Shown: positions 2,553-21,449, counted from the stretch's first letter. The stretch is DNA of 24,282 nucleotides from a virus (IMGVR_UViG_3300028626_000223:1-24282); one strand, 5' to 3'. Translations and numbers: made by a program. Notes: generated by a model not told the origin, from the letters alone.

Positions 2553-4294
2553 TAGTAACCGCCTATCTGATACTTTCTTTTTACCGTTGGGCGCTCTTCT
2601 GTTTTGTAATTTGATTCAAGAGCAAGAGCCCCACCGATAGAGATTAAATCGACGTCTTTACTGGTGCTGACGCTGTCTTTTCTTACTGCAGCCTGAAGTG
2701 CATACTCCCCGCTTTTGATTAGTTGCAAGACTTCTGGAGCAATGTTTCCAAACTCTACTGTCATGAGTTTGTTCTGTTCTCGTTTAATAGAGTAGATCAT
2801 TACGTCGTATGTTGACGCTGGTTCTATGTCCTTCGTCGCAGTTTGCAGCGTGAATCTTTTCCCTACTGTAATATCTTTGTCGAAAAAATCCGATGATTTG
2901 TAGGTAAAACTCCCACTCAATATTCCGTTCTGGATATTCGTGAGCACCCCCCAAGCAAGTTTATCGCACCCATCTTCACTGATGATTCCCTTTGCATGGA
3001 TAGTAACTTCAATCGACTTATACTGGGTGGCGGTAGATACCATATTTGGATAGTATGGCTGGATAACAGCCCCCCTCCAATGGGCATATGCGAGGGTATT
3101 CTCCTGACCTCTCCCCAGATACTCACGGGACTCCGGATTAACTGTAGCAAGCTTAATACTGGTTTCAGTAATTTCTTTAGCCTGAATGATTTCAGACCCA
3201 ATCTTGAAATATTTTGTTGCAGGAGAGATATTAGAAAGAATCCCCGTATCTAGCGCCTTAATTATTGGCATAGTTTGTGTGATTAAACACGGTTGGCCGT
3301 ATAGATGAGGGGTATCTCCAGAAGAGAACCATTTCTCACGGGTAATACCAGTCACCCCCCCGTTTGCATCTCCTAAAGAATACGTATTTTCATACCCTAT
3401 GAATTCATTATTGACCCGAAACGTATCGTTTACTCCCCATCCCACTACGTTTCTCATACTTTGCAACCAAATACAATCGGAGTCTCCTAAGTGGGTGAGA
3501 TACATATGTGGGTCTGATGGGGGGAGGATTTCCTCTTCTCCTAAAATGGCGTCATCGCAATCAAGATAAAAATATGCGTTCTTTATTGGCTCTTTATCTT
3601 GCGTTTCCATATCTATGAGGAAGGAGGCGGTCGTAGTATACCCAGAAATCTCTTTTTCAACCCCGATTACCGTTACAGAAGAGTATTGTTTATATAGCGA
3701 CCGGTCTAATTTGAGCCGGAATATATCTTTGTTCTCAACTAGAATAAGGGGGTCTTCAAGTGCGTCTATGATCCCGTCAGATACAATTATTTTTGCCCAC
3801 TGGTTTAAGTATGCGGTCGTCGCAGGTTCACACTCGTATCTCCAATTAAGCCCTGACATAGAGGCGATCGTGTTAAGATGAGTTAGTATCGATCCACTTC
3901 TGAATGCATACCGAATTAGCGGGTTTCGTGTTGCATTATATTCGAACCAGAACAACTCGCTGCCATCCGGATTCTTTGGGAGAAGGGCATAGATCAACTC
4001 ATTCGCTCTCATAATAGGCATCTCGTCTTGGTTGGTTACTACCGTGTCTCGAAGCAAACACAATATGGATTCCAGAGTAACCGATTCTATCCGAGATGAC
4101 ATCGACATGCTGGTTTCTTTTACAACCCCATATAATTTGACGGATTTGTCAACCAGCACCACACGTGTAGCACCTTCTGTGAATTTTCCCTCGTCACTAC
4201 TGCTAGCGACGACCCTATTGAATCTGAACGTGTTAACTCCGTTTAGCGACTCATACAAGGAACAGTTGAATGGGATGATCGGCTTTTCGGCCAT
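2552..4294 (-). CDS. 580-aa tail-tip hub (Tal/baseplate-hub-like) protein
   Basis: Position downstream of the TMP. The N- and C-terminal parts have a hub-like pattern (LNTIASMSGLNWRY, IFRLKLDRS, VTVIG, MIYSIKRE). It carries two inserted E[IF]I...R...H modules. Confidence 0.55.
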   Translation of the reverse strand: MAEKPIIPFNCSLYESLNGVNTFRFNRVVASSSDEGKFTEGATRVVLVDKSVKLYGVVKETSMSMSSRIESVTLESILCLLRDTVVTNQDEMPIMRANELIYALLPKNPDGSELFWFEYNATRNPLIRYAFRSGSILTHLNTIASMSGLNWRYECEPATTAYLNQWAKIIVSDGIIDALEDPLILVENKDIFRLKLDRSLYKQYSSVTVIGVEKEISGYTTTASFLIDMETQDKEPIKNAYFYLDCDDAILGEEEILPPSDPHMYLTHLGDSDCIWLQSMRNVVGWGVNDTFRVNNEFIGYENTYSLGDANGGVTGITREKWFSSGDTPHLYGQPCLITQTMPIIKALDTGILSNISPATKYFKIGSEIIQAKEITETSIKLATVNPESREYLGRGQENTLAYAHWRGAVIQPYYPNMVSTATQYKSIEVTIHAKGIISEDGCDKLAWGVLTNIQNGILSGSFTYKSSDFFDKDITVGKRFTLQTATKDIEPASTYDVMIYSIKREQNKLMTVEFGNIAPEVLQLIKSGEYALQAAVRKDSVSTSKDVDLISIGGALALESNYKTEERPTVKRKYQIGGY

Positions 4295-5358
4295 TATATC
4301 ACCTCGAATTTGCTCGATAGTTTGTATAGACTTTCGACGCGGGTTCTAAACTCTACTGTTTTTGGAGGAGATGCGTCGATTTGTGTGTTAAACCCAATTC
4401 CTATGTAGATGTTATATTTTGAAGTGAAATCGACATGAGGTTGCGCAATGTCATACTTACTTATAAACTCAACATGGGGGGAGATTATGCTGTAATTAGA
4501 TGTGAACGGAACGTCATAGTGGCGCGAAATGATGTTATATATTGACCCGAAATGCCTATAGACCGGGGGGACATAATATGAGACAATTACAACGCCAGAC
4601 CCCCCAGCATATGTCCATGAACCACCGTTTTTGTTCCTACATCCGCCTCCTCCACCAAGCCCATTTGTTCCCGGAGTCGGATCAGAATAATACGAAGAGT
4701 TTAACCACCACCCTCCTTGTCCACCTCCTCCAACGCCGCCATACCCTGTGTTTACCCCGGTATTGTAGTATTTTCCACCACCTCCACCAGCATATGCTGT
4801 AGAGACTCCGGTAATTGTAGAGTATTTTCCCGGGCCACCATATCCGCCACCAGTCCCCCCATGGACATCTGCATTTTCACCGGGGCCACCAGCACCACCG
4901 CCTCCACCAGAGCTTCTATCTGGGTAACTTCCATATACCCCGCCTCTATACCCCTGCCCAGAAACTCCAGACCCCGCAACACTTCCTCCACCGCCACCAG
5001 ATCCTCCATCGTTGCCCCCGCCTGCTCCTCCACCATATGCGACAAGGCCAAACGCTTCTGTGTTTGCTCCATTTTTGTGAGCCCCATCATAGATCCCACC
5101 GGCTCCTATTTTAATAGTGTGCGGGCCTGTAGTAACAGACAAGTTAAAGACTTCTACATACCCGCCTGCTCCTCCTCCACCGTCTCCATACCCCCCGCAA
5201 CCGCCTCCACCAACAAGCAACACCCATGCTTGAGTAACTCCTTCAGGGAACGACCATTCAACTGAATCCTGACCTCCTCCTGCACTAATGCTGGAGGTAA
5301 ATTTTGCAATACGCCTGCCATCAACCGGGTCTCTGGTTTCAGTTACAGTGACCGCCAT
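4294..5358 (-). CDS. Glycine-rich-domain tail/fibre protein with C-terminal F-x-[ST]-x-[YIV]-x-I-like repeats
   Basis: VLLVGGGGCGGYGDGGGGAGGY...IKIGAGG through GGSGVVIVSY is the glycine-rich domain common in phage tail proteins. Confidence 0.7.
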   Translation of the reverse strand: MAVTVTETRDPVDGRRIAKFTSSISAGGGQDSVEWSFPEGVTQAWVLLVGGGGCGGYGDGGGGAGGYVEVFNLSVTTGPHTIKIGAGGIYDGAHKNGANTEAFGLVAYGGGAGGGNDGGSGGGGGSVAGSGVSGQGYRGGVYGSYPDRSSGGGGGAGGPGENADVHGGTGGGYGGPGKYSTITGVSTAYAGGGGGKYYNTGVNTGYGGVGGGGQGGWWLNSSYYSDPTPGTNGLGGGGGCRNKNGGSWTYAGGSGVVIVSYYVPPVYRHFGSIYNIISRHYDVPFTSNYSIISPHVEFISKYDIAQPHVDFTSKYNIYIGIGFNTQIDASPPKTVEFRTRVESLYKLSSKFEVI

Positions 5359-5360
5359 AT

Positions 5361-6041
5361 TTAAACCGGGCCTGACCCGTATATAATTGTAAACTGGTCG
5401 CCAGAAAATCCATCAATAAATGCCGGGACCGTTCTTTGTTTCCATACTGCAGTATACTCGTTTGGGTTAATTTGGCCTACAACAATTCCATCTCCATAAG
5501 AAGACGGAGCCGTGTATAAGTATCGTGTCGCCGGAGCCAGAGCCATAAGCATTGGTCCTGACGTTGGGGTTCCAAATGCAGAAGCCACCGTAACATCCCC
5601 TGTCGTTGTGCTTACATATGTTACCAGTCTTATCGTCGCGGCTTCTGTATCGTGTGTGCAATTATAGATCCAGTCCCCCGGCATGATATATTGATATAAA
5701 GAGGATGAAAAGGTCATTCTTGTTGCAGTTACAAATGTTGCAGTTCCAAGAGATACAGTTGCATTTAGAAGGGACAGCGAGCCGGTTTGACAGATCTTTA
5801 GAGTATCCCCTGCCAATGGCTGACTTGAGATCCATACTCTGACCGATTCCCAGTAATCTACGTTCTCGTTTCTAACGAATTGTTTCCTATAGTCCACCAG
5901 CCCGTTTTGTCTCTGTTCATCTGTAACGTTTGGGAACTCATTATTAGAGACAGATGAGGTCTGAGGAGCAGACAGGTCAATATTGCCACCTTCTTCTGAA
6001 ATAGGGGCATAGTATTTGATTGATGCTGTACTTAGTGGCAT
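5361..6041 (-). CDS. 226-aa tail-associated protein, paralog B
   Basis: GGNI...SSVSNNEFPNV...NG...YRKQFVRNEN motif of a type seen in phage tail proteins; TAATG coupling. Confidence 0.65.
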   Translation of the reverse strand: MPLSTASIKYYAPISEEGGNIDLSAPQTSSVSNNEFPNVTDEQRQNGLVDYRKQFVRNENVDYWESVRVWISSQPLAGDTLKICQTGSLSLLNATVSLGTATFVTATRMTFSSSLYQYIMPGDWIYNCTHDTEAATIRLVTYVSTTTGDVTVASAFGTPTSGPMLMALAPATRYLYTAPSSYGDGIVVGQINPNEYTAVWKQRTVPAFIDGFSGDQFTIIYGSGPV

Positions 6042-6721
6042 TATACTTCCTCAATTTTTAACGTAAACCAGTCGTTTGCATACTGGGGGCACCCGGGAAT
6101 CACCCGGTACTTTTTCCACACGGCTATAGCGGCACCTGCAGGTATTGTAACGGGGGGATATACTACAATTCCTGTCTGTGATTTTGGGTATACATACATA
6201 GACATTGTTGCAGGAGCCACCGCCAAGACCTTCCCTGCCCCAAGGGTACCCCCATATGGATACTTCAGAATAACATGAGTTTCTGTAACTTCTGAAACCT
6301 GCCCTGCAAAGGCCACCGTGTCGTCTGTATAATTAAATACCATCTCGCCCGCTCCGAGTTCTAACCGCAAGTCAGAAGAGGTTTCAAAATATCCTGAAGC
6401 GGTTACAGTTGCATGTCCTGACAATGTAACCGAGTCATACAGCTTTGACTTGCTTCCTGACGGGCACATGCTAATTTCCGTATAAGGGTTTCGAGTAGTA
6501 AGTGCTTCAAAGTATATCACGACCCCATTCCAATCAGATGCGTTTAGGTTTTTAATGAACTGTTTTGAATATCTAGTCGTTCCATTTAGGAGTTCGTTCG
6601 AACTGATTCGATCAAACTCGTTGTTTAGTGTTGAAGACACCATTAAAGATGTGCCAATGCCTCCCCCATCAGTCGCAACCGCCCTATAGAATTCAAACAG
6701 TGCCGGATCAATCTCGCTCAT
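6041..6721 (-). CDS. 226-aa tail-associated protein, paralog A (start revised from 6799 to 6721, MSEIDP...)
   Basis: ATG 6721 overlaps the upstream stop (ATGA); motif GGGI...SSTLNNEFDRI...NG...YSKQFIKNLN. Confidence 0.65.
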   Translation of the reverse strand: MSEIDPALFEFYRAVATDGGGIGTSLMVSSTLNNEFDRISSNELLNGTTRYSKQFIKNLNASDWNGVVIYFEALTTRNPYTEISMCPSGSKSKLYDSVTLSGHATVTASGYFETSSDLRLELGAGEMVFNYTDDTVAFAGQVSEVTETHVILKYPYGGTLGAGKVLAVAPATMSMYVYPKSQTGIVVYPPVTIPAGAAIAVWKKYRVIPGCPQYANDWFTLKIEEV

Positions 6722-7176
6722 GATTGTTTCTCGACGATTTGTAGTGAAAAACTCACGTTGATCGTATCTCCATGCCCCCCGGCACCAGAGACAGTCCACC
6801 GTTCAAGCAGAACGTAATAAGTCCGTTCACCCAATATCAGAGTGTAGGGTACATATGTGTCACTGTAATTCTCTTTTTTGAAGAATCCTTCTGCGTAATG
6901 GTAGGTGGATGAATCTCCAATACCATCGAGCCACGTGGTATTGATTGTTATGGTGTCTGACTCGATGAAGTTCAGATCAAACCCTATCGGTTCCTGATCC
7001 GGCACGGGGATTATAATTGGCGATTTGGACATCGTCCGGGTCCAGTCTGCAATCCCTGCATAACTGGGCCCGGTTGCCGTTTCCAGTGCCCGTTGTAGTT
7101 CCCCCCCTATAGTAGTCTGCCCGATATACAACCTACCTCCATCAACATTCTCAAGGTATACCTCTCCCCGTGCCAT
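6718..7176 (-). CDS. 152-aa distal tail protein (Dit-like), inferred from position
   Basis: First gene after the TMP (TGATG overlap); the size and terminal beta-strand INVSFSLQIVE fit the tube-fold Dit class. Confidence 0.55.
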   Translation of the reverse strand: MARGEVYLENVDGGRLYIGQTTIGGELQRALETATGPSYAGIADWTRTMSKSPIIIPVPDQEPIGFDLNFIESDTITINTTWLDGIGDSSTYHYAEGFFKKENYSDTYVPYTLILGERTYYVLLERWTVSGAGGHGDTINVSFSLQIVEKQS

Positions 7177-10100
7177 CAGATCACCAACCGTCTGCTATCT
7201 GCTACCATCATCTGTTTAAACTTCTCAAAGAGTATCCGGTCGTCTTCCCGTTGCACAACAAACGTGTTGTGATTCGTTATCGTGGTCTTGGTAGTATCAG
7301 TCCGGACATTTGAGTTTGTATTGACCCGCGCAGGTATAATCGCTTCCCCTGAATGCACATTCACGACCCCATCTGATAATATATCTCCACCAGATGCCAT
7401 TGATGGAATATTCAGTGCCCCCTTTGCACTATTGAAGAGCCCGCCAATTCCCGGCAGCCCAGACAGATACCTATCAATAATCTCCATAATGGCAGATGGC
7501 AGCCCTGCGAGGTATTCTCCAAGCGACGCAAATGCCCCGAGTATTGCTTCCCTAACGGTGTCTCCAGCCGCAGCAGCAGATTCCTGCCACGCCGTTACTG
7601 TTGCAATCACAGCGTCAACAACTCCCGTTACTGTCGCAACCACAGCAGATAACACATCTCCTGCCTTTGTAAGTGCATCCGATATCGCTCGTGTTGCGGT
7701 ATCAATTCCTCCAGTGACTGCAGCACCAACTACAGCCGGAGCACCTTGCAGATCGACTCCTGTGTTATATGCAGTGGCCGCAACTGATCCAAGGAACCCA
7801 TACTGGTTCGTAAGGTGCCCCCCTGCATTCGCCTGTTCTGGAGTGAGGTTCAGTCCTGACGCGAGTTTGTCAGCCTCTTCTTTCATTGCAAAGAGGTCTT
7901 TGAATCCAAGTATAATTGGGCCGAGGATTGCTCCTCCTGCAGCACCAACCGGCCCGCCTATCGAACTGCCAGTAACTGCACCTGCAGTTATATCATTTAC
8001 CAAGGATGCGGCAATCCCTCCCATGTCTTCCCCAAGAGGACCAGCGATTGCTTTACCGATTGTTGCACCATCCCGGATCATAGAATCTCTGGCAAAGTAT
8101 CCTGCTACTCCAGCAACCGGCCCGAGTTTCGGGAATCTCGCAAGCAGTTTTGCAAACGCAAATGCCCCTGCAGCTGTCATCCCTCCGGTTGCAAGAGCCG
8201 CCCCGGTGTCTCCTGTTCGCAGGTATTCGGCTCCGCCAGTAAACACCCCAAGACCGGCACTCCCAACTAAAGCTGCGGTCCCGCCCTTTCCAAGAAACTT
8301 GTCTCCGACCTCTGCGACTTTCTTTCCCGCATTTACAACGGTATCTATTACGCCCTTTGCCGCCTCGACCGGCTTTGGGATGAACGCCTTTATTGCCTCA
8401 ACAACTTCGCCAAACTTTGTCTTTATAAACTCCCATAATCCCCCCGCCTTTTCATTTATCCGTTCCCAGATGCCGGCCGCTTTTTCTTTTATCCATTCCC
8501 ACACCCCGCTTGCTTTCTCCTTGAGCCATTCGAACAAGGACCGGGCCCCTTCCTTTATTGCTTCCCATATTGATTTGAACAGGTCTTTGAGGATATCGAG
8601 CATCCCTTTCCCTTCAACTCCGGGAACCGTTGCGACTGGCATGGCGTGCAATATAGAATTCAGAACTGCCAGCCCGAGACCGAGCAACGCAATGATTCCA
8701 AATCCTTCTATAGATATTAAAGAAAGGAGTGTTCTCTGCGATTTGCCTACACTGATTGCAGTCTCAATCTGTGCCTGCTGTCCTTTGACGAAGATCCTGC
8801 CGAGTCCGTGCATCCCTCCTTTAATCGCACCGATGGCAATACCGACACCAGCAATAGGTGCCATGACTGCTCCAATCATCTTACTTGCTACACCAAGCCC
8901 GCCAACAATTGATTTGCCGATGTCAGATGAAAGGAACGAGCCAACTCCCTGTGCAATGGTAGTGATCCCGCCTTTGAAGATGTCACCCGCACCGCCAACA
9001 ATGCCTCCCATCCATGACCCGAAGTCTCCACCTGCACCCGCAACTCCTCCTTCAGCCCGGTGTTCAAACCTGCGGACAACTTCTTTCGGCACGATGAGTT
9101 CGCCGGGTTCAGTAAGAACAGGAACGCTGTCTCCTCCACCATATCCGGGGATCCTCATACCAAGTGCAGCCTTGTACTTTATTATCCTCTGCCCAGACGG
9201 TTGTGGGATTGCCCCGTCTTCTTCTTCTTCTCCCGCAGGGCGATTTACTCGAACCCCTTCAAGTCCAGATGGCGAATCTCCAAACGGCCCGAATATCGCC
9301 ATGGATGCTCTTTTTGATCTCCCCCATATCCTCGACAGTATTCCCGGTCCTTGTTCTGGAGGAGTGTAAGGAGTTCCATTCAGAGCGGCAGTAAGTTTCT
9401 CAAACGCTGCAGCAGCGGCTTCAACGTCCTTCTTCATCTTATAGATGCTGTAAAGTGCAGCGAAAACTGCAACTCCAACAAGTGCGAGCCCTGTGCCAAG
9501 TGCTATCAATTTGTGGCCTTTGAAGAAGTTCCCGAGCCATATGAATCCTCTTGTGATGAGTAAGAATGCGGGGAGAAGCGGGCGGATTATCATGTCAAGC
9601 ATGTATCCCCATCCTCTGCCAACAGCACCCATGCTTTTCTGATACACTTGAGATGTTGCAGTAAGTATCCTCAATACATGAGCAAATATCAACCCTCCGG
9701 TCACTGCATACCGGGTGCTGGAAATCAGCCGGTCAAACTGCATCCCGAGTTTCCCCCCAGACACTTTTGCTTCAGCAACCGGATCATATCGCGGTTCTTT
9801 TCCCGGCCCAAACGCTGGCTGGCCTTCTGCAATGAGATTGAGGGTTTCCTTTACGGTCGTTTTAAACCCGCCTGCGGCATTTAAAAACGCAGGACCGACC
9901 TCTGATCGTATCTCATCAGAAAGCACCTGTGCTGTGACATGGGCAATGCCCCTTGCAGGGTCCGCAACGTATTCCGGAATTGGTGATATTGTGCCGCCTT
10001 CGACATCCTGCTCCATCTTTGTCCCGGTCTTTAAGAACCGTGCTCCCCCCATGGCTTTGAACAGCGGGTTTGGTATGACGTGGAACCCGCTGCCTGCAGG

Positions 10101-13100
10101 GACAAGCATCTCCGGGCCCTCTTCTCCGACGACTGCAGTCTGCCCGGGCATAAGCGGGCCTCCAGACGCAAGATACTTGAATATGTTTGGGATTCTGGTC
10201 CCAGCGGGGACAATAGTTCCTGCTGCAGTTACCGGGTCGAACACCTCATAGGGGAACGCCGTAAGAGAGAAGGCTTTCAGAGCAGGGTGCTCCCGTGACA
10301 TGACTCCTTTCTTTGGCAGTGCAAGCCGGACATCAGGAGAAACTTTTGGAGAGGATAAGAAGTCCTTGATGTTCGCTGCCATCGGGATGAGCGGTTCTAA
10401 CGGGTTCTGTTCTCCCACTGGCATAAACCCCATCTTCAGATACGATGCAACCGTGTCTTTAAACGGTATTGCTTTCAGTTCAATATGGGTAAGTAGGTCC
10501 CCAACCGGCCCTTTCAGCGCCTTTGCAAGAGCCATGCCGATAAGAGTTGGTCCAAGCCCTTTCCCTCGCTCAAGTGCAGCGAGTTCGCCAACATACATGT
10601 TCCATCCGGACCCGCGGTCAGCAACACGTATCGGGAGAACGCTGTCGGTTAATGTTGGACGGTTGAACGATCCGATTGCCCCTGCGATGTTACTGGAGGT
10701 GTCGTAGGCAATCACCTTGTCCATTGGTTGCAGGAGCAGGTCTTTCGCAAGTGAGACAGATCGGTCAGCCACGAGGGAGTTGAGGTATGTGTATTCAGTC
10801 TTGTACTTCTTTCCGAGCGATGCGGCTTTCAATGCAGCGTCTGCTTCATAGGCGAATTCAAACGTCCCTCCTGCGAGTTTTCTCGGGAAAAGCGAAGAGA
10901 TGACATCAGACTGCCCTAGATCGTAGACCATGGCGTCAAATTGCTCGCGGTGATGTGAAATCCAGTCTTTTGAAAGCCCTTTTGTTAAGTATTTTAATTC
11001 AAGCCCTGATACCAGATCCGCCTTGATGGTCCTTGTTTTATAAAACGCATCGCGGACACCATCATATAAGTTTTCTTCTACGGTTTCGAGTGATCGAATG
11101 TCTGCGACCATCCCTTGCCCGCGAGACGAAATCAATTCAGCCTCGTGTGCGCTAATATACCCAAGACGCCCTTTCAACCGGTCTGTTATTTTGACCTTAA
11201 ATAAAAGTTCGTGGAATTCGCGAGATATTTGGGGCAACAGAGACAGGTATTGATATGATGGATCTATGCCTTGTATCACAGCGTCCCCTATTGTATACCT
11301 ATTCTTTGTGACGCTATACGTCATTCCCGGTGCCCTAAATAGTGTCGCCCCTTTTAATGCATCTACCAACCCCCCAGACGTTTTAGAGATGTGTTTATCG
11401 AACGCATCTATTTCTTTTATGAAGTCCGGGTTCGTTTGCCTACTTGTGCGATACGCCCCCCGCCCGCGTAAAAACGTGCGTAATTGCAGACTTGGTTTAT
11501 AATCCTCACTTGTTTTGTAGTCACCATACGGAGTGACGCCTTGGATCTCCTCTAGTGATTCTCCAACCGCTTTTGTGAATTGTTGGCCTATTGAGAATAG
11601 GGGGGCATTTAATGGCGCAAACTTATCATAAATCTCAGAACTCCATCTCAAAAACTTCTCTGAATCAACCTTGTATAAATGATCTCCGTAATCTAACGGG
11701 TGATCCACATAGTTGAAAAATGGAATTTTCAAAGCCTTGGAATATAATGACGGGGTTGACTTTTTGCTTATGGCATTACCAAGATCCCGCCACCCACTAG
11801 AGATAAACGCTTCATACGCCTCTATTGCTGCGTCTTCATTAGATCCAATAAGAAGATCATCAACTGTTCCACCAGCAAGCCGCCGAGGATTAATTATCCA
11901 CTCTCCGGGAGTGAGTTTGCCGAGGACCGAATCCTGATCCCCAGATCCCGGAACAATGCCTCCTTTGTTAAACCCGAGCAGCCGATCAATGATAGGTTTC
12001 CGAACACCGCCTTCAAGGTTCAGATACTTCTGCCAGTTGAGATCGCTCTGCTCACCAAGCACTTCTCCAAGGATCGGTGCAAGTTCATGGTTCAGGGCAT
12101 CTCCGATGATTTCTGCTATGGCTTTCTGCGGTGCTTCATCTTCAGCACTTTTCGGAACAGACCTGATGTCCTGAATGTATTTTTGCCGGACTAATCCGTT
12201 CTTGATCTCCAGCAGCGTTGTGTTGATTGTATCTAATTTTCCAGCGATACTGCTGACACCAGAGGTAGACTTTGCGCCGAACGACTCTTCGATCTGTTTC
12301 CCTATGGTCTTGAGTTTGCCACCGATGTTCTTCTGGATCTCTGCGGTGATGACATAGACCATCTCTTGTGATGCCAGTCTGACCCCATCAAGCATATCGG
12401 TGATCGACTGCTCAATGCCTGACATCCACATTGACTGCATTCCGATGAACTGATCGTATGCATCATCAAGGACTTTGATACGTTCGCGTGCAGACTTGAC
12501 GTAATCGGCTTCAGACTCGGTTGGCACCCGGCTTGCTCCACCAGATGCTCTGTGTTTAGATGGGCGTTTGTCTGGTTTTGATCTCGGGGTCGTTGTCGCT
12601 TCTCCCGTCTCGCCGGTTGCAGCCTTCTGTTTCTTTCTGAACTCTGCGACCTCTTCTGCCGTAAGTTGCTGTTTGCCCCCAATACCCTCCTGCTTTAATG
12701 CCGCTTTCTCGTTCTCAAGATCCTGCTGGGCTTTCTTCCAGAGGAACAATTTCTTCTGGTAATCTTCTTCTGCTGCATCGGCGAGCGATTGAGACACTGT
12801 AGTGTCCCCTGCGTCCATAGCATCGAAGAGAGCAGCTGCTTTCTTGTCAGCATCTTCCATCTCCTTCTGCAGCCGGGCAACGTCTGCTTCAAGTTTCTTT
12901 ATGGTTGCAGTGTGAAGAGACTGGGATTCAACAGCAGGAACGCCAGCAGCCTGTTTCTCTTTGACTGCTGCAACAACCTCTTCCTGAGTTACCTGCTTGA
13001 CTTCCTGCTTGACTTCCACCGTCACTTTCTGTTCAGGAGGTTTTCCGACCTCGACAACCTTGATCTTTGCCCGTTCTTTATGAAGAGCCTGCATCTCCTG

Positions 13101-13601
13101 AATCAACTTGTTCATCAGGGCTTTGTCGTCATCGGTGAGAGAATCGTTGCCGATCATCTCATGGATATGTTCCTGAATCTGGCCGAGTATTGCAGAACTT
13201 CCTTGCGACTTGGTTGCCTTGACGATCTTCAGAACCTTCTCAAAGAAGGCGTTATACATCTGGGCGTAATCAACGGCATAATAGTCCTGCCCCTTTCCAT
13301 ACTGGACTTTCACCAGCCCGGCAGACAGGGCTTTTGTCACCTTGCCTTTCCGAGATGACAGCAGGCGTTCTAGGCGGAGCAGTTCTCCATCATAATCCTT
13401 CTCAAAATTAGAGAGAGATCCTTCTATCTCAAGCAGGGCGTTGTTGAGAAACCCTTTTATCTGGTTCTCGCCAAGCCCGGAGAGTCCTTTTTCAACAAGT
13501 TGCCCGAGTTTCTTTGCACGGCTGGAGATCTGGTTGCTTGCAGTGGTCTTACCTATAGTACTCCGTGCCGTTACGTCTATCTCTGATGCGTTGTCTGTCA
13601 T
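7176..13601 (-). CDS. 2141-aa tape measure protein with embedded ADP-ribosyltransferase-like and GNAT cassettes (start revised to ATG 13601)
   Basis: Longest ORF, directly after the tail chaperone. It has Ala/Gly-rich helical regions, several hydrophobic segments, 11-residue Trp repeats and four AxGG...GE-hydrophobic-P modules typical of TMPs. Confidence 0.92.
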   Translation of the reverse strand: MTDNASEIDVTARSTIGKTTASNQISSRAKKLGQLVEKGLSGLGENQIKGFLNNALLEIEGSLSNFEKDYDGELLRLERLLSSRKGKVTKALSAGLVKVQYGKGQDYYAVDYAQMYNAFFEKVLKIVKATKSQGSSAILGQIQEHIHEMIGNDSLTDDDKALMNKLIQEMQALHKERAKIKVVEVGKPPEQKVTVEVKQEVKQVTQEEVVAAVKEKQAAGVPAVESQSLHTATIKKLEADVARLQKEMEDADKKAAALFDAMDAGDTTVSQSLADAAEEDYQKKLFLWKKAQQDLENEKAALKQEGIGGKQQLTAEEVAEFRKKQKAATGETGEATTTPRSKPDKRPSKHRASGGASRVPTESEADYVKSARERIKVLDDAYDQFIGMQSMWMSGIEQSITDMLDGVRLASQEMVYVITAEIQKNIGGKLKTIGKQIEESFGAKSTSGVSSIAGKLDTINTTLLEIKNGLVRQKYIQDIRSVPKSAEDEAPQKAIAEIIGDALNHELAPILGEVLGEQSDLNWQKYLNLEGGVRKPIIDRLLGFNKGGIVPGSGDQDSVLGKLTPGEWIINPRRLAGGTVDDLLIGSNEDAAIEAYEAFISSGWRDLGNAISKKSTPSLYSKALKIPFFNYVDHPLDYGDHLYKVDSEKFLRWSSEIYDKFAPLNAPLFSIGQQFTKAVGESLEEIQGVTPYGDYKTSEDYKPSLQLRTFLRGRGAYRTSRQTNPDFIKEIDAFDKHISKTSGGLVDALKGATLFRAPGMTYSVTKNRYTIGDAVIQGIDPSYQYLSLLPQISREFHELLFKVKITDRLKGRLGYISAHEAELISSRGQGMVADIRSLETVEENLYDGVRDAFYKTRTIKADLVSGLELKYLTKGLSKDWISHHREQFDAMVYDLGQSDVISSLFPRKLAGGTFEFAYEADAALKAASLGKKYKTEYTYLNSLVADRSVSLAKDLLLQPMDKVIAYDTSSNIAGAIGSFNRPTLTDSVLPIRVADRGSGWNMYVGELAALERGKGLGPTLIGMALAKALKGPVGDLLTHIELKAIPFKDTVASYLKMGFMPVGEQNPLEPLIPMAANIKDFLSSPKVSPDVRLALPKKGVMSREHPALKAFSLTAFPYEVFDPVTAAGTIVPAGTRIPNIFKYLASGGPLMPGQTAVVGEEGPEMLVPAGSGFHVIPNPLFKAMGGARFLKTGTKMEQDVEGGTISPIPEYVADPARGIAHVTAQVLSDEIRSEVGPAFLNAAGGFKTTVKETLNLIAEGQPAFGPGKEPRYDPVAEAKVSGGKLGMQFDRLISSTRYAVTGGLIFAHVLRILTATSQVYQKSMGAVGRGWGYMLDMIIRPLLPAFLLITRGFIWLGNFFKGHKLIALGTGLALVGVAVFAALYSIYKMKKDVEAAAAAFEKLTAALNGTPYTPPEQGPGILSRIWGRSKRASMAIFGPFGDSPSGLEGVRVNRPAGEEEEDGAIPQPSGQRIIKYKAALGMRIPGYGGGDSVPVLTEPGELIVPKEVVRRFEHRAEGGVAGAGGDFGSWMGGIVGGAGDIFKGGITTIAQGVGSFLSSDIGKSIVGGLGVASKMIGAVMAPIAGVGIAIGAIKGGMHGLGRIFVKGQQAQIETAISVGKSQRTLLSLISIEGFGIIALLGLGLAVLNSILHAMPVATVPGVEGKGMLDILKDLFKSIWEAIKEGARSLFEWLKEKASGVWEWIKEKAAGIWERINEKAGGLWEFIKTKFGEVVEAIKAFIPKPVEAAKGVIDTVVNAGKKVAEVGDKFLGKGGTAALVGSAGLGVFTGGAEYLRTGDTGAALATGGMTAAGAFAFAKLLARFPKLGPVAGVAGYFARDSMIRDGATIGKAIAGPLGEDMGGIAASLVNDITAGAVTGSSIGGPVGAAGGAILGPIILGFKDLFAMKEEADKLASGLNLTPEQANAGGHLTNQYGFLGSVAATAYNTGVDLQGAPAVVGAAVTGGIDTATRAISDALTKAGDVLSAVVATVTGVVDAVIATVTAWQESAAAAGDTVREAILGAFASLGEYLAGLPSAIMEIIDRYLSGLPGIGGLFNSAKGALNIPSMASGGDILSDGVVNVHSGEAIIPARVNTNSNVRTDTTKTTITNHNTFVVQREDDRILFEKFKQMMVADSRRLVI
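8385..8570 (-). repeat. 33-nt / 11-aa periodic TMP repeats (WEAIKEGARSL FEWLKEKASGV WEWIKEKAAGI WERINEKAGGL WEFIKTKFGEV)
   Basis: Aromatic residue every 11 aa, the classic amphipathic TMP repeat. Confidence 0.85.
10179..10862 (-). other. GNAT-fold acetyltransferase cassette inside the TMP
   Basis: MYVGELAALERGKGLGPTL (acetyl-CoA loop R-G-x-G-x-G, 10551-10571), then IELKA and VASYLKMGF (FY-x-K-x-GF-type motif, 10425-10442). Confidence 0.8.
10863..10886 (-). repeat. Cassette-boundary motif PRKLAGGT
   Basis: Near-identical peptide to PRRLAGGT at 11865-11888, encoded with different synonymous codons. Confidence 0.85.
10887..11864 (-). other. ADP-ribosyltransferase-like (VIP2/Alt, R-S-E clade) cassette inside the TMP
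   Basis: Ordered motifs DY...LRTFLRG, IKEIDAFD, TLFRA (Arg 11334-11336), GDAV...DPSYQYLSL, ISREF, LLFKVKI, GYISAHEAELISSRG (E-x-E 11136-11144). The STS motif is degenerate (YLS). Confidence 0.68.
11865..11888 (-). repeat. Cassette-boundary motif PRRLAGGT
   Basis: Directly follows the module FNKGGIVPGSGDQDSVLGKLTPGEWIIN and precedes the ART-like cassette. Confidence 0.85.
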
Positions 13602-14150
13602 AAGGATCTCTCTTGTGCCCAACGTTCTCGGGCTGCAGGCAGGGCATGTTCAAAGAACAACCGGTCCATATCAGTCAGCCGACCTAACCACGACGGGGGC
13701 CATCCAAGCAACCGGCACAGTTCGATGTCGTACTGACCTTCAGGCGCCTTTGCGAAAGTTTGCAGTCTGCTTCTCTTTGTTGCCGACCAGCGTATACATC
13801 ATCTCGAGCACTTCAAAGGCAATACCGTCTTCAGTGTCAATCAGTTCCCATGTCTTTGGAACGTTCCATGGAGACTCTTTGCACATGCCGGCAAGCACTT
13901 CATACGTGCTCATCTCCAGCGGTTCGAGACTGTCGCCCTGATTCTGCATCTTTTCCATTACCCGTCGCAGCGGTTTTGGAATGGTCGGCCGGATCTTGAT
14001 CGGGATCTCGTAGACGGTGAGCGTGAGAAACTGGTTCTCTACGTTGTGCAAAAGTTGGCGCACTTCGTCAAAAGAGGTTTGCTCTGCATCTACGTAAGTG
14101 GACAGTTCGTCCTGAAGTCTGGCGTATCTCTCCTCGTTTGTTTCTGCCAT
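13598..14150 (-). CDS. Predicted 183-aa frameshift product (GT-type tail assembly chaperone), +1 shift at TTT-CGC
   Basis: The +1 frame reads FAKAPEGQYDIELCRLLGWPPSWLGRLTDMDRLFFEHALPAARERWAQERSL*. It has no upstream start of its own, fills the whole chaperone-TMP gap, and its stop overlaps the TMP ATG (ATGA). Confidence 0.75.
13740..14150 (-). CDS. 136-aa tail assembly chaperone (gpG-like)
   Basis: Acidic helical protein between the tube and TMP genes. Confidence 0.8.
   Translation of the reverse strand: MAETNEERYARLQDELSTYVDAEQTSFDEVRQLLHNVENQFLTLTVYEIPIKIRPTIPKPLRRVMEKMQNQGDSLEPLEMSTYEVLAGMCKESPWNVPKTWELIDTEDGIAFEVLEMMYTLVGNKEKQTANFRKGA
13752..13757 (-). promoter_or_regulatory. Putative +1 ribosomal frameshift site TTT_CGC
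   Basis: In-frame UUU followed by C allows tRNA-Phe to re-pair on UUC; it lies just upstream of the gpG-like stop. Confidence 0.68.
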
Positions 14151-14191
14151 GATTATTCTTTATCCTTAAAAAGATAAGAATTGTGTGGGCC

Positions 14192-14656
14192 TTATGATCC
14201 CGACATCTCGACCATACGGCCAGTGCCTGACATCTCACGGGTAATGAACTCGTTCTGGTTCATGTTGATAGGCACACCATCAAACACAATGTCGGTGACG
14301 GTATAGGTCTGGGTCTGCTGGGTTTCTCCTGCAGATGCCGGGAGAGACTTGAACGATGCAGTTAGTGAGAACATCGGAGGGACGTTCTTTGTGGCTGACG
14401 TAAAGTCTGAACCCACCACCTGATTGAAGATGGTATCAGCAGCAGCATCCCATTTTGCATACTTGACGGTAACGTTGACCTTCAGACTGTGACGGGCAAC
14501 GGCTGCACGTCGAAGATCTTCCATACCGTAGAGTTCAACCATCTCATACTTTGGTTCCACTGTGATGCCCTGAAGTGCGGCAATCGTCAGTGAATTGTTA
14601 TCTTTGTCCTTAAAATCAAGGGACGCATTGTTTGCGAACCACGCTACTGCAACCAA
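14192..14656 (-). CDS. 154-aa tail tube protein (TTG start)
   Basis: SD AGGTGA 6 nt before TTG; beta-rich tube pattern (ITVEPKYEMVELYG...VNVTVKYAKWD...FSLTASF...YTVTDIVFD...FITREMSGTG); position before the chaperone. Confidence 0.8.
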   Translation of the reverse strand: MVAVAWFANNASLDFKDKDNNSLTIAALQGITVEPKYEMVELYGMEDLRRAAVARHSLKVNVTVKYAKWDAAADTIFNQVVGSDFTSATKNVPPMFSLTASFKSLPASAGETQQTQTYTVTDIVFDGVPINMNQNEFITREMSGTGRMVEMSGS

Positions 14657-14691
14657 TTTTTTTCACCTTATCGGATTATGTGAGCCGGGGA

Positions 14692-14719
14692 GATAAAAAT
14701 ATGAGCCGGATTTCTCCGG
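14692..14719 (-). terminator. Hairpin CCGGA-GAAA-TCCGG followed by a T-rich tract; terminator-like, or overlapping a promoter for the tube gene
   Basis: Starts immediately after the TAA at 14720; 5-bp stem with a GNRA loop, then CTCATATTTTTAT. Confidence 0.4.
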
Positions 14720-15181
14720 TTAGAACAGGCTCTTGAACGTGCAGCGAAGAATGAAGAAGTGAACGACCGCGTCTACTGCAACCCAGTATCCAACATCCAA
14801 ATCGGCTTCAGTCAGCCCTGCGAACGGGCCTATCACGGTGTAGTCATGCTGCCTTAATATGTCATACGCAGTATACCCATACCGGCGAACCGCCCTGATC
14901 GAGTCTGTGGCAACGTCAGGCATCTCGTAGTAAGCGACAATGGTGATAGGGTATTCGTGCATGACAGATTCGGTGTCAGCATAGTTGACCATGTGGTCCC
15001 CGCCTTCCATTGTCGGTATAACGTATGCCCATGGTAACATATGGTTGGCTGCAGGAACAGCCGGCTCTTCGTCCTTCTCCAGAACGCCTAGCAACCCTCC
15101 GAGTGTGGCAGCGTTCGTCTCCAGTAAGGAGATTACCTCGTCTACAACTTTATCAATTTTGTCTGCAGTGTCCCACGCCAT
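14720..15181 (-). CDS. 153-aa tail terminator/completion protein
   Basis: Last neck gene before the tube; LPWAYVIP...YPITIVAYY...FFILRCTF pattern of tail terminators. Confidence 0.65.
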   Translation of the reverse strand: MAWDTADKIDKVVDEVISLLETNAATLGGLLGVLEKDEEPAVPAANHMLPWAYVIPTMEGGDHMVNYADTESVMHEYPITIVAYYEMPDVATDSIRAVRRYGYTAYDILRQHDYTVIGPFAGLTEADLDVGYWVAVDAVVHFFILRCTFKSLF

Positions 15182-15651
15182 TCTCTCTCCCGTATTGCCA
15201 TTGCTTTTCTTACACCGATCTCTGTTCCACGATCTTGGGATGCATTCATCATTGCTTGGAACCGTGCGGGATTAATACCTTTCACTGACCGGGTAACGAC
15301 CCAACGATGAATGAACGAGTAATAGAACTTGAGGGCTTTCTGTTTGGTCGGTGTGATCGGAGCCCCCCGTGGGCCGTAGATACCCGTCCCTTCTGCCAGC
15401 CAGCGGGCATACGGCAGAGCGTTGTAGATCCGAAGCCCGTATCCTCGTTTCTTTTTCTTCCACGACTTGTCGAGATGAGTGAGTTTCTCACCTTTGAACG
15501 ATCTCCATTTCCTGTTGTAAGGGGAGTTCCGGTCAAGTTCTTTGAGGATGCTGTTGGTGATCTGTTCGATGAACACGTTCTCTGTCTTGATCAGTTCTTT
15601 GTCAAGTAACGGTGCCTGTGCTTCAGCAAGAACTCTAACGATGATCTTCAA
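15142..15651 (-). CDS. HK97 gp10-like neck/tail-completion protein (start revised to TTG 15651)
   Basis: Basic protein with NALPYARWLAEGTGIYGP...ITPTKQKALKF...VTRSVKG; the TTG overlaps the upstream stop (TTGA). Confidence 0.7.
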   Translation of the reverse strand: MKIIVRVLAEAQAPLLDKELIKTENVFIEQITNSILKELDRNSPYNRKWRSFKGEKLTHLDKSWKKKKRGYGLRIYNALPYARWLAEGTGIYGPRGAPITPTKQKALKFYYSFIHRWVVTRSVKGINPARFQAMMNASQDRGTEIGVRKAMAIREREWRGTLQTKLIKL

Positions 15652-16118
15652 AACATCTCGCCGCCTTTCAGGAAGAACAGGATGACAAAGATGACGACGG
15701 CAACCAGCACGGAGTTCATAAAGTTGAACAGCCGGTCGGTCCACACCGACGCTCCTCCACGCGAATGCTCGCTTTTCTCAAGGATCTTTACCCGGTCTTC
15801 GATGTCTTTCCATTTGTCTGGGAACCTGCAGTTGTGTTTGACATCTTCAAGGTCGGCAGCATGAGATGCAATAATCTGCATCTGTTCCCGATGCACTTGG
15901 TCCTGTTCATGCATGTGTTCCTCGAACCGGGCGTTCAGTTGTTTGAAGCAGGCAGTCATCGAGGCCATGTCCCGATTCAGCTCAGCAACACCGATCCGGA
16001 TTTCAGTCATGATCTCCTGACTGGTGCATTTGTGAGTCGCGTTCTTCAGGATATCTGCGAATTCGTCGATGTTTGTGATTTCGATTGATTTCGGGTTATC
16101 TAAATCCGCCGCTGCCAA
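15648..16118 (-). CDS. 156-aa coiled-coil protein with one C-terminal transmembrane helix; possible lysis accessory
   Basis: SD AGGAGGT before TTG 16118; heptad-like middle region; hydrophobic FNFMNSVLVAVVIFVILFFL followed by KGG. Confidence 0.6.
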   Translation of the reverse strand: MAAADLDNPKSIEITNIDEFADILKNATHKCTSQEIMTEIRIGVAELNRDMASMTACFKQLNARFEEHMHEQDQVHREQMQIIASHAADLEDVKHNCRFPDKWKDIEDRVKILEKSEHSRGGASVWTDRLFNFMNSVLVAVVIFVILFFLKGGEMF

Positions 16119-16806
16119 ACTGATACCTCCTATACCGTGTGAGCATCATCTCGAGTTCGGGGGTGAAAACCTTCCGATCAACCTCCAGATCAAACATCTG
16201 TGAGTAGTCGCGAACACCAGTGTTCCTGATGGTCTGTGCTTCCTGAAACTTCTTCTTGACGTTGAGGAGGTTTCCTGCAAGTCGTTTGGCAATAATTCTG
16301 ATCTGTTCAAGGTCTTCTGACCCTTCTTCAAACCCTGCCCAGTATTCAATCTTGACGTTCTTGTATCCTTCAAGCGGGACGTTGGTATGGAACCGGACAA
16401 CTCCAAGCCCCTCGTCTTCAAAATACGTAAAGTCCCCGCCAGTGGTTGCACATCGGATCTGTCGCTTCACCCATGATGGCGACGCGGTTTCCATAGCAGT
16501 GTCGGTGTATACTACCGGATCGCCGGTTGCGGATTCCCGCAGGAAAAACAGCCGGTCAGTCTCGGCATACAGATCGCTGTCATACTCAAGGCCGTTCTGC
16601 CCTCTGCCATCATGATACTCTGTGACCAGATGAGAGCCGAAGGTGGGGACTCCACACCAGCGGTGCATCCACCCGGCAATTCCTCTATCGAGTTCTTCCA
16701 CGAAAGATTCCCAGACGGTAGCCGTCATGGTCTTCCCTGCGTCTTTCATGTCGGTAGAGGCGAATCCGGTAAACGCCTCCAGACTCTCACGGTCGAAATA
16801 TATCAT
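16096..16806 (-). CDS. 236-aa head-tail connector/adaptor
   Basis: N-terminal helical hairpin, RWCG...TEYHDGRG, VKIEYWAGF, and C-terminal LTRYRR, typical of gp6/gp15-like adaptors with a beta insertion. Confidence 0.78.
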   Translation of the reverse strand: MIYFDRESLEAFTGFASTDMKDAGKTMTATVWESFVEELDRGIAGWMHRWCGVPTFGSHLVTEYHDGRGQNGLEYDSDLYAETDRLFFLRESATGDPVVYTDTAMETASPSWVKRQIRCATTGGDFTYFEDEGLGVVRFHTNVPLEGYKNVKIEYWAGFEEGSEDLEQIRIIAKRLAGNLLNVKKKFQEAQTIRNTGVRDYSQMFDLEVDRKVFTPELEMMLTRYRRYQFGSGGFR

Positions 16807-16988
16807 GCTGTGGTTACGGCTTTCCAGCCAGTAGATTTCTTAAAGTACAGTATCTCGTTCCCTGGATCTGACGCAATGCTCCCTACAGGTGCGTTGCTGT
16901 CGAGGTCTGCATAGGTGTCTCCAGACCGGACTGTCATGATCCAGATGCCTCCCACTTTCAGATACGTGGAGTTGTAAGGTGCTGGCAT
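16803..16988 (-). CDS. 61-aa small virion (head-associated) protein
   Basis: SD GAGGTGA; APVGSIA...LYFKKSTGW pattern; ATGA coupling to the connector gene. Confidence 0.6.
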   Translation of the reverse strand: MPAPYNSTYLKVGGIWIMTVRSGDTYADLDSNAPVGSIASDPGNEILYFKKSTGWKAVTTA

Positions 16989-16999
16989 CTCCAGTCACC

Positions 17000-17536
17000 T
17001 CACGTTACACTCGGTATTGATCCGGGTGTAGATGGAGCTTTGGTAAAGTCCGGGCCTCTTGGGTCAGGGGGCATTGCTACCCATGTGAACTCAACGTCAG
17101 AGGTCTGGTTGTCTCCAAGGTTGAACGAGTTCATGATATACAGAGTAGATGTGCTGGCATGAGAGGTCGGAGTAGAGCCGAGAGCCCCACGAACAATGCC
17201 AGTCAGAGTCCCGGTAGTTGCTGCTGACCCGGAGTCTGCGCCGACAAAGATAATCTCGTTGTCCCACCGGCAGTAATACCCGCCAGACTTCCGTGCTCCT
17301 GCAACCCCTCCAGTATATGCAATGGAAGTCGCAGTAGGCGCGATGGTCGCAGACTCTCCTGCGGTCAGGGTGTTCCGGGTGATTGTTGCTGCAGCACCGG
17401 TGTTGAGTCGGGCACAGATTACCTGAACCCCGGCGTCGTCAAACACCACGTCGTCGTTCTGTGCAGCACATGCAACGTTCGCGGTTTTGAACTGCACTCC
17501 CACAAGCGGGAATCCGTATTTAGTAACGACTGTCAT
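17000..17536 (-). CDS. 178-aa capsid decoration/minor head protein
   Basis: Directly after the MCP with SD GAGGTGA; Thr/Ala/Gly-rich; contains DNEIIFV...LTGIVRGALGSTPTSH. Confidence 0.62.
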   Translation of the reverse strand: MTVVTKYGFPLVGVQFKTANVACAAQNDDVVFDDAGVQVICARLNTGAAATITRNTLTAGESATIAPTATSIAYTGGVAGARKSGGYYCRWDNEIIFVGADSGSAATTGTLTGIVRGALGSTPTSHASTSTLYIMNSFNLGDNQTSDVEFTWVAMPPDPRGPDFTKAPSTPGSIPSVT

Positions 17537-17541
17537 TCATA

Positions 17542-18873: not shown

Positions 18874-18877
18874 AGTA

Positions 18878-19318
18878 TCAGGCTCCTATTGCCGCTGCGT
18901 TTGCCTCATATGGGTTATATTCTCCTTCAGATTCAGGGATATAAACCAGCGGGCCGCTCTTGCGGACAATGGTATTCTTCATCTCGTCAACCGCTTTCTT
19001 GAGTTCTGCAACATCGGTTGTCAGTCCATCAAACGCTTTCTTGACGTCGCCAACAGCCTCTTCGACCTTTGCCTTAACAATAGCATCAACGTCTTCGAGC
19101 GTGGCTTTCTTGATATCTTCTGTGATCGCTTCTTCCTTCACTTCTTCAGGTTTGTCAACCGCCGCCTTGACGACGACTGCAAGGTCGCCGATAGCCTTGG
19201 TGATTGTTCCAAGTGAAGCCTCAATAGTATCAAGCCGCTCTTCTGACGTGCCTTTTACAACATCGTCAAGAGGGGTTTCAACTATGGGGTCGTCTGTCTT
19301 CATGGGTTCCGGAACCAT
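18878..19318 (-). CDS. Putative separately translated 146-aa scaffolding protein (internal in-frame start MVPEPMKTDD...)
   Basis: GGTGA-CACA-ATG at the protease/coiled-coil boundary, with a TATA box upstream. Confidence 0.55.
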   Translation of the reverse strand: MVPEPMKTDDPIVETPLDDVVKGTSEERLDTIEASLGTITKAIGDLAVVVKAAVDKPEEVKEEAITEDIKKATLEDVDAIVKAKVEEAVGDVKKAFDGLTTDVAELKKAVDEMKNTIVRKSGPLVYIPESEGEYNPYEANAAAIGA

Positions 19319-19939: not shown

Positions 19940-20390
19940 AGTGATCCTCCCACACTACCGGATAATAAGCGTCAGGGTTGGCTGCACAGACAAAGTGCCA
20001 GATCATGTGCCCGATCCTGCTTCGCCAATACGGTACTGTTGTGAATAATAAAAGGTTCATTTTAAGCCAATTAACGTATGCTTGTTTGTACCCGTCATCC
20101 ACAACCCCGTCCATCTCGGCATCTTCTATTAGTTGGGCAATGACAATGGCGTTCAGATCCTGTGCCATGTCCATCATCTTGTTGTAGTCGTGATGAGACT
20201 CGTCAAACAGTTTGATGATATCCCCATCTACTTCAATGCCTTTGAAGAACTCCAACAGAGGACGGATTGCTTCGTCAAGTTCTTTCACATACCCATACGT
20301 TTTCGTGACGGTCTTCTTCCCTTCCGGAGTGTTGATGACAACTTCATACTCGCGGATCTCACGTTTATATTTCGCGGGTTCTTCGGTCAT
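19854..20390 (-). CDS. 178-aa hypothetical protein, related to 20387-21055
   Basis: SD GGAGGT and ATGA coupling; shared motifs WLKM...WRSRIG and FDPTEWYVLG. Confidence 0.7.
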   Translation of the reverse strand: MTEEPAKYKREIREYEVVINTPEGKKTVTKTYGYVKELDEAIRPLLEFFKGIEVDGDIIKLFDESHHDYNKMMDMAQDLNAIVIAQLIEDAEMDGVVDDGYKQAYVNWLKMNLLLFTTVPYWRSRIGHMIWHFVCAANPDAYYPVVWEDHFDPTEWYVLGEPQRPKDNNKISAFSLPD

Positions 20391-21436: not shown

Positions 21437-21449
21437 CCCTGTGCCGGAT

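Follow-up and report, generated by a model that had tools for sequence, protein, structure and literature searches.

Exchangeable, putatively enzymatic cassettes within a tape measure protein from an uncultured virus, probably of archaea

The window analysed here is a viral contig of 24,282 bp from IMG/VR (IMGVR_UViG_3300028626_000223, completeness estimate about 49%). Its longest open reading frame (ORF), on the minus strand, encodes a tape measure protein (TMP) which carries two globular-type segments, called cassettes 1 and 2 below, within its chain. Cassette 1 resembles ADP-ribosyltransferases (ART) at the motif level and cassette 2 is predicted to have the GNAT acetyltransferase fold. The ORF counts 2148 aa when it is read from the TTG at 13622. 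Since the proteins of the relatives begin at the ATG equivalent to 13601, this ATG is the likely true start, giving a protein of 2141 aa; the protein P0002 is the window TMP read from that ATG. The ORF had been taken for a TMP in an initial annotation made from the window alone, and this was borne out by matches to phrog_1272 (E 1e-14), phrog_58 (E 4.7e-10) and further TMP families of PHROG, all inside aa 1291-2136, by 11-aa repeats, by a C-terminal module common to the TMP of phage lambda, gpH, and by synteny. It is the largest tail gene and comes after the major tail protein gene and two small chaperone-sized genes, and before distal tail/baseplate-type genes; this order is kept in six related contigs (seven with the window). 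No TMP family was matched in a Pfam search of the window TMP. The features of the ORF are the following, where HMM stands for hidden Markov model.

7176..13622, minus strand: TMP ORF, the longest of the window, 2148 aa from TTG at 13622
11979..13601, minus strand: N-terminal Lys/Glu-rich region (aa 8-548), probably helical by composition; includes a variable Lys/Pro-rich linker with HRASGG (aa 357-362)
11865..11978, minus strand: module M1 (aa 549-586), FNKGG...DSV...LTPGEWIINP and then the junction RRLAGGT (aa 580-586); module HMM match at aa 549-581
10884..11864, minus strand: cassette 1 (aa 587-913), 327 aa, globular-type, ART-like at motif level only (TLFR, Y.YLSL, HEAELI..R)
10863..10883, minus strand: junction RKLAGGT (aa 914-920) between cassettes 1 and 2, by motif match; DNA homology to the GNAT-only relatives resumes at aa 916
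10179..10862, minus strand: cassette 2 (aa 921-1148), GNAT-fold acetyltransferase-like, with an R-x-x-G-x-G acetyl-CoA motif (ERGKGLG) and YLKMGF
10020..10178, minus strand: module M2 (aa 1149-1201), KYLASGGPLMPGQTAVVGEEGPEMLVPAG ... ARFLKTGT; module HMM match at aa 1148-1177
9423..9725, minus strand: conserved hydrophobic core (aa ~1300-1400), from a Kyte-Doolittle scan and conservation in the family alignment
9045..9176, minus strand: module M3 (aa 1483-1526), YKAALG..GGGDSVPVLTEPGELIVP ... HRAEGG; module HMM match at aa 1487-1515 and seed alignment
8631..8909, minus strand: Gly/Ala-rich hydrophobic stretches (aa 1572-1664), by Kyte-Doolittle; the PHROG TMP matches cover the region
8431..8531, minus strand: 33-bp (11-aa) tandem repeats, G-x-W-E-x-I-K-E-K-A, by Tandem Repeats Finder; a TMP ruler-type repeat
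7179..7409, minus strand: module M4 and C-terminal tail (aa 2072-2148), MASGG...HSGEAIIPA; module HMM match at aa 2072-2100

Relatives of the protein were sought by two word-indexed searches (5.8 billion proteins) and by an exhaustive HMMER search (1.84 billion representatives), which yielded 12 relatives and the distant TMP P0014; both word-indexed searches returned the same 12 proteins. The HMMER search with aa 556-1155 gave four matches among the representatives, and all of them were TMPs, so that no free-standing homologues were available to deepen the alignments. When viral contigs were scanned with the post-cassette core, the matches were to the ubiquitous module of unrelated TMPs, and the family gained no member. 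The TMPs of the relatives are between 1581 and 2286 aa long. Over the N-terminal ~580 aa their backbones share 72-89% identity with the window, and for close relatives an identity of 77-89% extends to aa ~588-602. A slot follows, from aa ~545 to ~1150, which holds 0, 1, 2 or 3 cassettes. Eight architectures could be distinguished among 13 proteins.

P0013: no cassette and no M1
P0004-P0009: GNAT only
P0011: ART-like variant only
Window TMP: ART-like and GNAT
P0003: GNAT, duplicated linker and module, then ART-like variant
P0010: GNAT and a different 174-aa domain
P0012: three cassettes
P0014 (L005:4366-6411, aa 486-1167), the most distant member: HD domain, a 34%-identical GNAT and a domain with a JAB-like motif

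The exchange could also be followed in the DNA. Relatives of the GNAT-only type are homologous to the window as far as aa 587 and again from aa 916, and cassette 1 is a clean indel in comparison with the contigs L006 and L002. In the case of the cassette-less relative (P0013/L007), homology stops at aa 544/545 and resumes at aa 1151, which is also the point of return for the ART-only relatives. Over aa 1149-1480 the protein P0005 does not differ from the window at all (100% identity), and yet cassette 1 is absent from it. That cassettes are exchanged between relatives had been suggested beforehand, together with an alignment of TMP orthologues as the way to see it; in this alignment different domains indeed occupied the same motif-bounded slots, and the DNA breakpoints at aa 544/545, 587, 916 and 1151 agree with it. 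The two segments of the window are, as had been supposed, of a non-ruler, globular type and set between motif-bounded junctions. The ratio of non-synonymous to synonymous substitution rates (dN/dS) was 0.08-0.16 for the GNAT cassette, 0.25 for the ART-like variant and 0.11 for the N-terminal backbone; by these values purifying selection acts on the cassettes as it does on the backbone. The region aa 545-1150 is, as far as the aligned sequences can tell, an insertion hot spot for globular, putatively enzymatic cassettes. Where backbones are nearly identical and yet unrelated types of enzyme replace one another in them, this is the signature of a conflict between host and virus.

Other parts of the gene vary as well. 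The C-terminal half of the TMP (window 7176-9400, aa ~1410-2148) is also mosaic, with at least 2-3 alternative versions among relatives which are 25-93% identical by stretch, and recombination in the gene is therefore not confined to the cassette slot. The window has ~3-4 copies of the 11-aa repeat and P0003 has ~9, and extra copies are also present in P0005, P0008 and P0010. In composition, the cysteine count of the 2148-aa TMP is 0.

The initial annotation had divided the TMP by bare A-x-G-[GT] motifs. All eight of these are in place (HRASGG at aa 357-362, FNKGG at 551-555, PRRLAGGT at 579-586, PRKLAGGT at 913-920, KYLASGG at 1149-1155, YKAALG at 1483-1488, HRAEGG at 1521-1526 and MASGG at 2075-2079), and the GG-to-GG spans of 334 and 236 aa given for the two segments are correct. 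The repeated unit itself turned out to be a module of ~30-50 aa, composed of F-x-x-G-G, a short variable stretch (often P-G-x-G-x-x-D-S-V) and G-E-h-h-h-P, often followed by R-x-L-x-x-G. An HMM built from TMP copies of this module recognizes the four copies M1 to M4 in the window TMP. Seven of the eight motifs belong to this module and junction system, and for these the partition stands. HRASGG is not a module copy: it is missed by the HMM, it lies in the variable linker, and some relatives do not have the GG there. M2 is kept in all 13 family proteins and is the apparent ancestral module. The backbone without cassettes has three module copies, and M1 is a fourth one, placed ahead of the cassettes in cassette-bearing relatives; it is absent from the cassette-less relative P0013/L007, where DNA homology ends at aa 544.

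The module is not restricted to this family. The HMM found one copy per ORF in 30 unrelated viral contigs, mostly ~80-120 aa before the C-terminus, and five copies in P0015, an unrelated TMP of 2890 aa of the PhageMin_Tail type, one module of which is 46% identical to M1. In lambda gpH one copy was found at aa 731-762 of 853, and the extended module with R-L-x-x-G reaches aa 790; the position of M4 corresponds to that of this C-terminal module. The FATGG...GE module which the initial annotation placed near the end of gpH is thus real (aa 733-762 of 853). No Pfam family covers this stretch in lambda gpH, and the structure of the Ur-lambda tip (PDB 9e7m) models gpH residues 818-849 only, so that the module is not part of it. 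In gpH (gene H, L056, aa 700-790) the series FATGG...GEFVF...YRLMRGYATGG comes directly after the Gly-rich stretch where the literature puts the cleavage of gpH to gpH*. In P0015 the module copies bracket non-ruler segments, one of which has a HELGH zincin-like motif and another a weak LPD14 match (E 0.02). This suggests that module-bounded inserts may occur in other TMP families.

The cassettes are joined to the modules and to each other by the peptide R-x-L-x-x-G-T. It was observed three times in the window TMP (aa 580, 914 and 1195) against an expectation of 0.048, and none of 20,000 shuffled sequences reached three occurrences. In the 12 family proteins scanned it occurs solely at cassette boundaries and after M2. 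Every cassette in the cassette-bearing relatives is preceded by such a peptide; the distant P0014 has RRLASGT after the HD cassette and RYLAKGT after M2, and shows the variant HLAGGT at its third junction. The two PR[RK]LAGGT copies of the window match at seven of eight residues, while every codon differs between them. This speaks for selection at the level of the peptide and not for a recent copying of the DNA. The conserved positions are R, L and G-T. The GG is not kept at the junctions of the relatives, where LENGT, LKDGT, LATGT, LKTGT and LVTGT were also seen, and a ubiquitin-like LxGG/JAB cleavage was for this reason rejected as a general rule.

In the case of cassette 2 several methods agreed. 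The model obtained with AlphaFold2 (AF2) had a predicted TM-score (pTM) of 0.62, with a per-residue confidence (pLDDT) of 60-82 in the C-terminal half. When it was compared with the PDB by Foldseek, nearly all of the top ~50 listed matches were GNAT acetyltransferases or GNAT-fold toxins (best E 0.049, probability 0.91), and VIA-align gave Z scores of 7.2 to NAT10 and 7.0 to Naa60 with 125-148 residues aligned. The nearest ESM Atlas clusters are GNAT families (0.93, good recognition). The top PDB profile match is the acetyltransferase 2g3a, aligned at motif A. Residues R99, G100, G102 and G104 of the acetyl-CoA motif, together with YLKMGF, are invariant in comparison with the 34%-identical copy of P0014, which itself has a weak Pfam match to Acetyltransf_7 (E 0.15). 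No GNAT model was found by Pfam for cassette 2 at E<=5, and PF00583 gave no candidate in the window record at E<=10. Taken together, the fold, motif and language-model evidence indicates that cassette 2 very probably has a GNAT fold, and a GNAT-like, acyl-CoA-dependent activity is putative.

In cassette 1, R177 (TLFR), S208 (Y-x-Y-L-S-L) and E241 (H-E-A-E-L-I..R) are invariant in four homologues of 32-38% identity and stand in the order of the R-S-E type of ARTs, which is a pattern recognized by eye and carries no statistic. There was no Pfam match (E<=5) and no PDB match by sequence or profile. The models PF18760 (ART-PolyVal, of the H-Y-D type) and PF18857 (LPD38) gave no candidates in the window record at E<=10, no ART-PolyVal sequence was found in 401 genomes from which one was sought for profile comparison, and no relative was confirmed when metagenome contigs were scanned with the ART-like alignment. 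A word-indexed search with this alignment among longer proteins, limited to 2000 aa and crowded by other matches, found nothing. In the ESM Atlas the clusters closest to cassette 1 are of LPD38 (score 0.96, low recognition), a phage-only domain of polyvalent proteins without an assigned function (PMC5512222). We regard it as possible that cassette 1 is an ART, with slightly more doubt than belief. The initial annotation had read both segments as enzymes, an ART and a GNAT, and had proposed AlphaFold runs on each of them as a check. The GNAT half of this reading held, by structure prediction, motif and ESM Atlas; the ART half was left with its motif pattern, since the AF2 model of cassette 1 was not usable (pLDDT 32) and no profile matched.

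Further cassette types were present in the relatives, and across the family they comprise the ART-like and GNAT cassettes, HD, a second domain with an R/S/QxE motif, a domain with a JAB motif and one domain without assignment. The HD cassette of P0014 was found by Pfam at the cut-off (E 2e-4, 22 bits). P0010 and P0012 share a shorter cassette type, which keeps R-x-G, S-W-[ST] and Q-x-E and had no match in a PDB profile search; a relationship with cassette 1 was considered and rejected (hhalign probability 0.2%). The P0014 cassette with the JAB/RadC-like motif H-N-H-P...S-x-x-D had no match in Pfam and none in the PDB by profile. The cassettes left without an assignment span aa 809-982 in P0010, aa 516-655 and 663-874 in P0012 and aa 924-1167 in P0014.

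The host is probably an archaeon. This rests on the MCM helicase and the ERCC4-type nuclease which the related contigs encode just past the tail genes, and on the 443-aa putative capsid protein of the window (17542-18873), which is 54% identical to a contig of an anaerobic-digester Euryarchaeota metagenome-assembled genome; the same protein is also 47% identical to a contig binned as Actinomycetota. The places of these observations are listed here.

L002:22387-26103, L003:17632-22645, L006:20523-24239 and L057: MCM/ERCC4 genes and capsid side

The closest known concept is that of the polyvalent proteins (Iyer, Burroughs, Anand, de Souza and Aravind 2017). These proteins of phages and conjugative elements are injected and combine ART, GNAT, RadC/JAB and LPD domains, the GNAT typically standing beside the ART (PMC5512222; PMC7824862). 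As in the TMP family, unrelated effector-type domains (ART, GNAT, RadC/JAB, HD-type, LPD) are strung in one virion-associated chain, here in eight arrangements, and the architecture varies strongly among orthologues; for the polyvalent proteins, delivery with the DNA and processing into units have been proposed (PMC5512222). In contrast to the present case, they are head or MuF/portal-linked, N4 vRNAP-like or conjugation proteins (PMC5512222), while the cassettes described here form part of the tail ruler itself and have a TMP-specific module at their borders. The polyvalent proteins have ARTs of the H-Y-D type (ART-PolyVal), for which no match was obtained here, and their hallmark MPTase peptidase was not found here by Pfam. 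As in a polyprotein, a conserved junction peptide stands at the domain boundaries (R-x-L-x-x-G-T, with the HLAGGT variant in P0014). The word "tape" is absent from the main text of PMC5512222, and literature searches brought up no description of ART, GNAT or HD domains within a TMP. The new element is the presence of polyvalent-type, putatively enzymatic cassettes inside a TMP; injected polyvalent proteins and TMPs with embedded enzymes were already known.

TMPs fill the tail lumen and exit from it at infection, and in lambda gpH* forms a trans-envelope conduit (PMC12617516). The enzymes known to be embedded in TMPs are cell-wall hydrolases, as in mycobacteriophage and staphylococcal phage TMPs and in the C-terminal peptidase of T5 pb2, and in these an enzyme sits in or at the end of the TMP and is delivered on its exit (PMC12617516), as may also hold for the cassettes. 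Those hydrolases act on peptidoglycan outside the membrane, whereas the present cassettes are of GNAT, HD and ART-like types, number up to three, and are swapped between close relatives. The lambda and T5 TMPs are cleaved near their C-termini (PMC12617516). Lambda gpH, which is processed to gpH* and gpHC, has the same FxxGG...GE-F-V...R-L-x-x-G module (aa 733-790), located after the Gly-rich region where a C-terminal piece of ~14 kDa is lost (PMC12617516), but unlike the window TMP it has one module and no enzyme domain. Entry of a pre-made protein-modifying enzyme together with the DNA is also known from T4 Alt, an R-S-E ART, and from MuF-toxin fusions such as a VIP2-like ART on MuF (PMC7302621). 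Their place in the particle is the capsid instead of the tail lumen, and they do not belong to a ruler protein; cassette 1 is ART-like by motif only.

We lean towards the view that the protein is a siphovirus-like, probably archaeal TMP with a slot for enzyme cassettes, which would be expelled into the host and act there catalytically. According to this model the cassettes would be built into the tail lumen within the few TMP copies of each virion and would be expelled along with the TMP at infection, ahead of any viral gene expression. In the cytoplasm they would work on host proteins or small molecules with acetyl-CoA and possibly NAD+, for take-over or counter-defence, and the junction motifs would serve as obligatory linkers, either as hinges or as cleavage sites. 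The chemistry of GNAT, HD and ART enzymes requires cytoplasmic cofactors or substrates. The strongly hydrophobic stretches of the TMP (aa 1369-1396, 1572-1601, 1631-1664 and 1987-2012, the first being the strongest transmembrane-like stretch by Kyte-Doolittle) are all located C-terminally of aa 587-1148, so the earlier placement of both segments N-terminal to the hydrophobic part was right. If the C-terminus leaves first, as in lambda, the cassettes would for this reason trail the membrane-inserting part. By analogy, we read the arrangement as an array of effectors of the polyvalent kind within the tail ruler.

Several observations weigh against this model. Three or six folded domains of 25-37 kDa at one axial level are too large for a tail lumen of ~4 nm; the model accordingly has to assume that they are packed unfolded and refold later. 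Neither a protease nor an MPTase-type domain was found in the window or the related contigs, where the neighbouring structural genes have no Pfam matches on record. The support for the GNAT assignment is moderate, with a mean pLDDT of 56, all Foldseek E values at 0.049 or above, VIA Z scores of ~7 and no Pfam GNAT match. The AF2 model of cassette 1, calculated from an alignment of four sequences, gave no usable fold, and in one of the four homologues the second Glu of E-x-E is replaced by Q (E-L-Q). Finally, the family is tiny, 13 protein clusters, all from uncultured viruses.

The size of folded domains in comparison with the lumen would be accommodated if the cassettes acted in the producing cell, where a late TMP precursor would modify virion or host proteins during assembly and would perhaps be trimmed before the tail is assembled or in the course of it. 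In favour of this, the TMP is a late and abundant product, and lambda gpH sheds a fragment during assembly (PMC12617516). However, the cassettes stand in mid-chain, between conserved backbone parts which a ruler needs, so their removal would take two cuts and a re-joining, and the rapid turnover of unrelated enzyme types fits a conflict with the host better than assembly; we consider a role in the producing cell very improbable. The inserts might also be non-catalytic, either as spacers which alter the length of the tail or as degenerate domains kept as binding or structural elements. Tail length is set by TMP length, which ranges in the relatives as given above, no cassette except HD, at the cut-off, passes a curated Pfam threshold, and the ART-like variant with Q has it at a putative catalytic position. 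On the other hand, the motif residues named above are invariant between the 34%-identical GNAT copies, as are R, S and E across the ART-like copies, the purifying selection equals that on the backbone, and a spacer would more simply be built from the 11-aa repeats, whose number already differs between relatives. Little likelihood is left, in our judgement, for inserts of this inert kind.

The junctions admit a different reading, namely that the TMP is a true polyprotein in which R-x-L-x-x-G-T/LAGG peptides are proteolytic sites, and viral, host or self cleavage would free each enzyme in the assembled tail or after ejection. The junction peptide is kept at every cassette boundary down to ~26-35% identity though the codons differ; the lambda TMP is cut in the Gly-rich stretch which directly precedes its FATGG module (PMC12617516), processing has been proposed for polyvalent proteins (PMC5512222), and one relative has the cassette with the JAB-like H-x-H-P...S-x-x-D motif. 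Yet Pfam found no peptidase family in the window TMP and its relatives, the HELGH motif occurring solely in the unrelated P0015, and the GG of an LxGG-type site is not kept. The JAB-like cassette is present in one relative only and has no Pfam or PDB match, and the same conservation would be expected of a hinge or of a motif for packing or chaperone binding. We hold cleavage at every junction to be rather unlikely. A broader proposal would make FxxGG...GE / R-x-L-x-x-G-T a general, portable cargo adaptor of TMPs, with which unrelated archaeal and bacterial tailed viruses would splice arbitrary cytoplasmic enzymes into the ruler, thread them unfolded through tail and membrane channel and release them by junction cleavage. 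The TMP would then be a programmable substrate for polyprotein injection, and P0015 would be its second instance. This generalization appears to us unlikely, somewhat more so than cleavage within the present family.

If the cassettes are delivered in the proposed way, the tail ruler would be a route for pre-made enzymes into the host cytoplasm before viral gene expression, and a second one beside the capsid-packaged T4 Alt, MuF-toxins and N4 vRNAP. It would operate in a virus group which probably infects archaea of anaerobic digesters, where early take-over and counter-defence are barely known. An experimental handle on the carrying capacity of a TMP is offered by the constancy of the junction peptide, together with the naturally occurring series of variants with 0 to 3 cassettes. 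The same series bears on the passage of globular domains through a 4-nm tube and on the role of the widespread FATGG module of lambda gpH. The arrangement also suggests a design principle for cargo loading into phage tails or tail-like injection devices.

The virus group is, by all sequence comparisons made, very poorly charted. In the phage GenBank collection neither megablast of the window nor tblastn of the TMP or of each cassette (E<=5) gave a match. Almost none of the other structural ORFs of the window (966-7176 and 13740-22169) match PHROG or Pfam families. A gene for a 535-aa tail fibre/tail protein (window 22643-24250; phrog_5302, E 1e-53) is located at the far end, upstream of the head-gene region and apart from the other tail genes.

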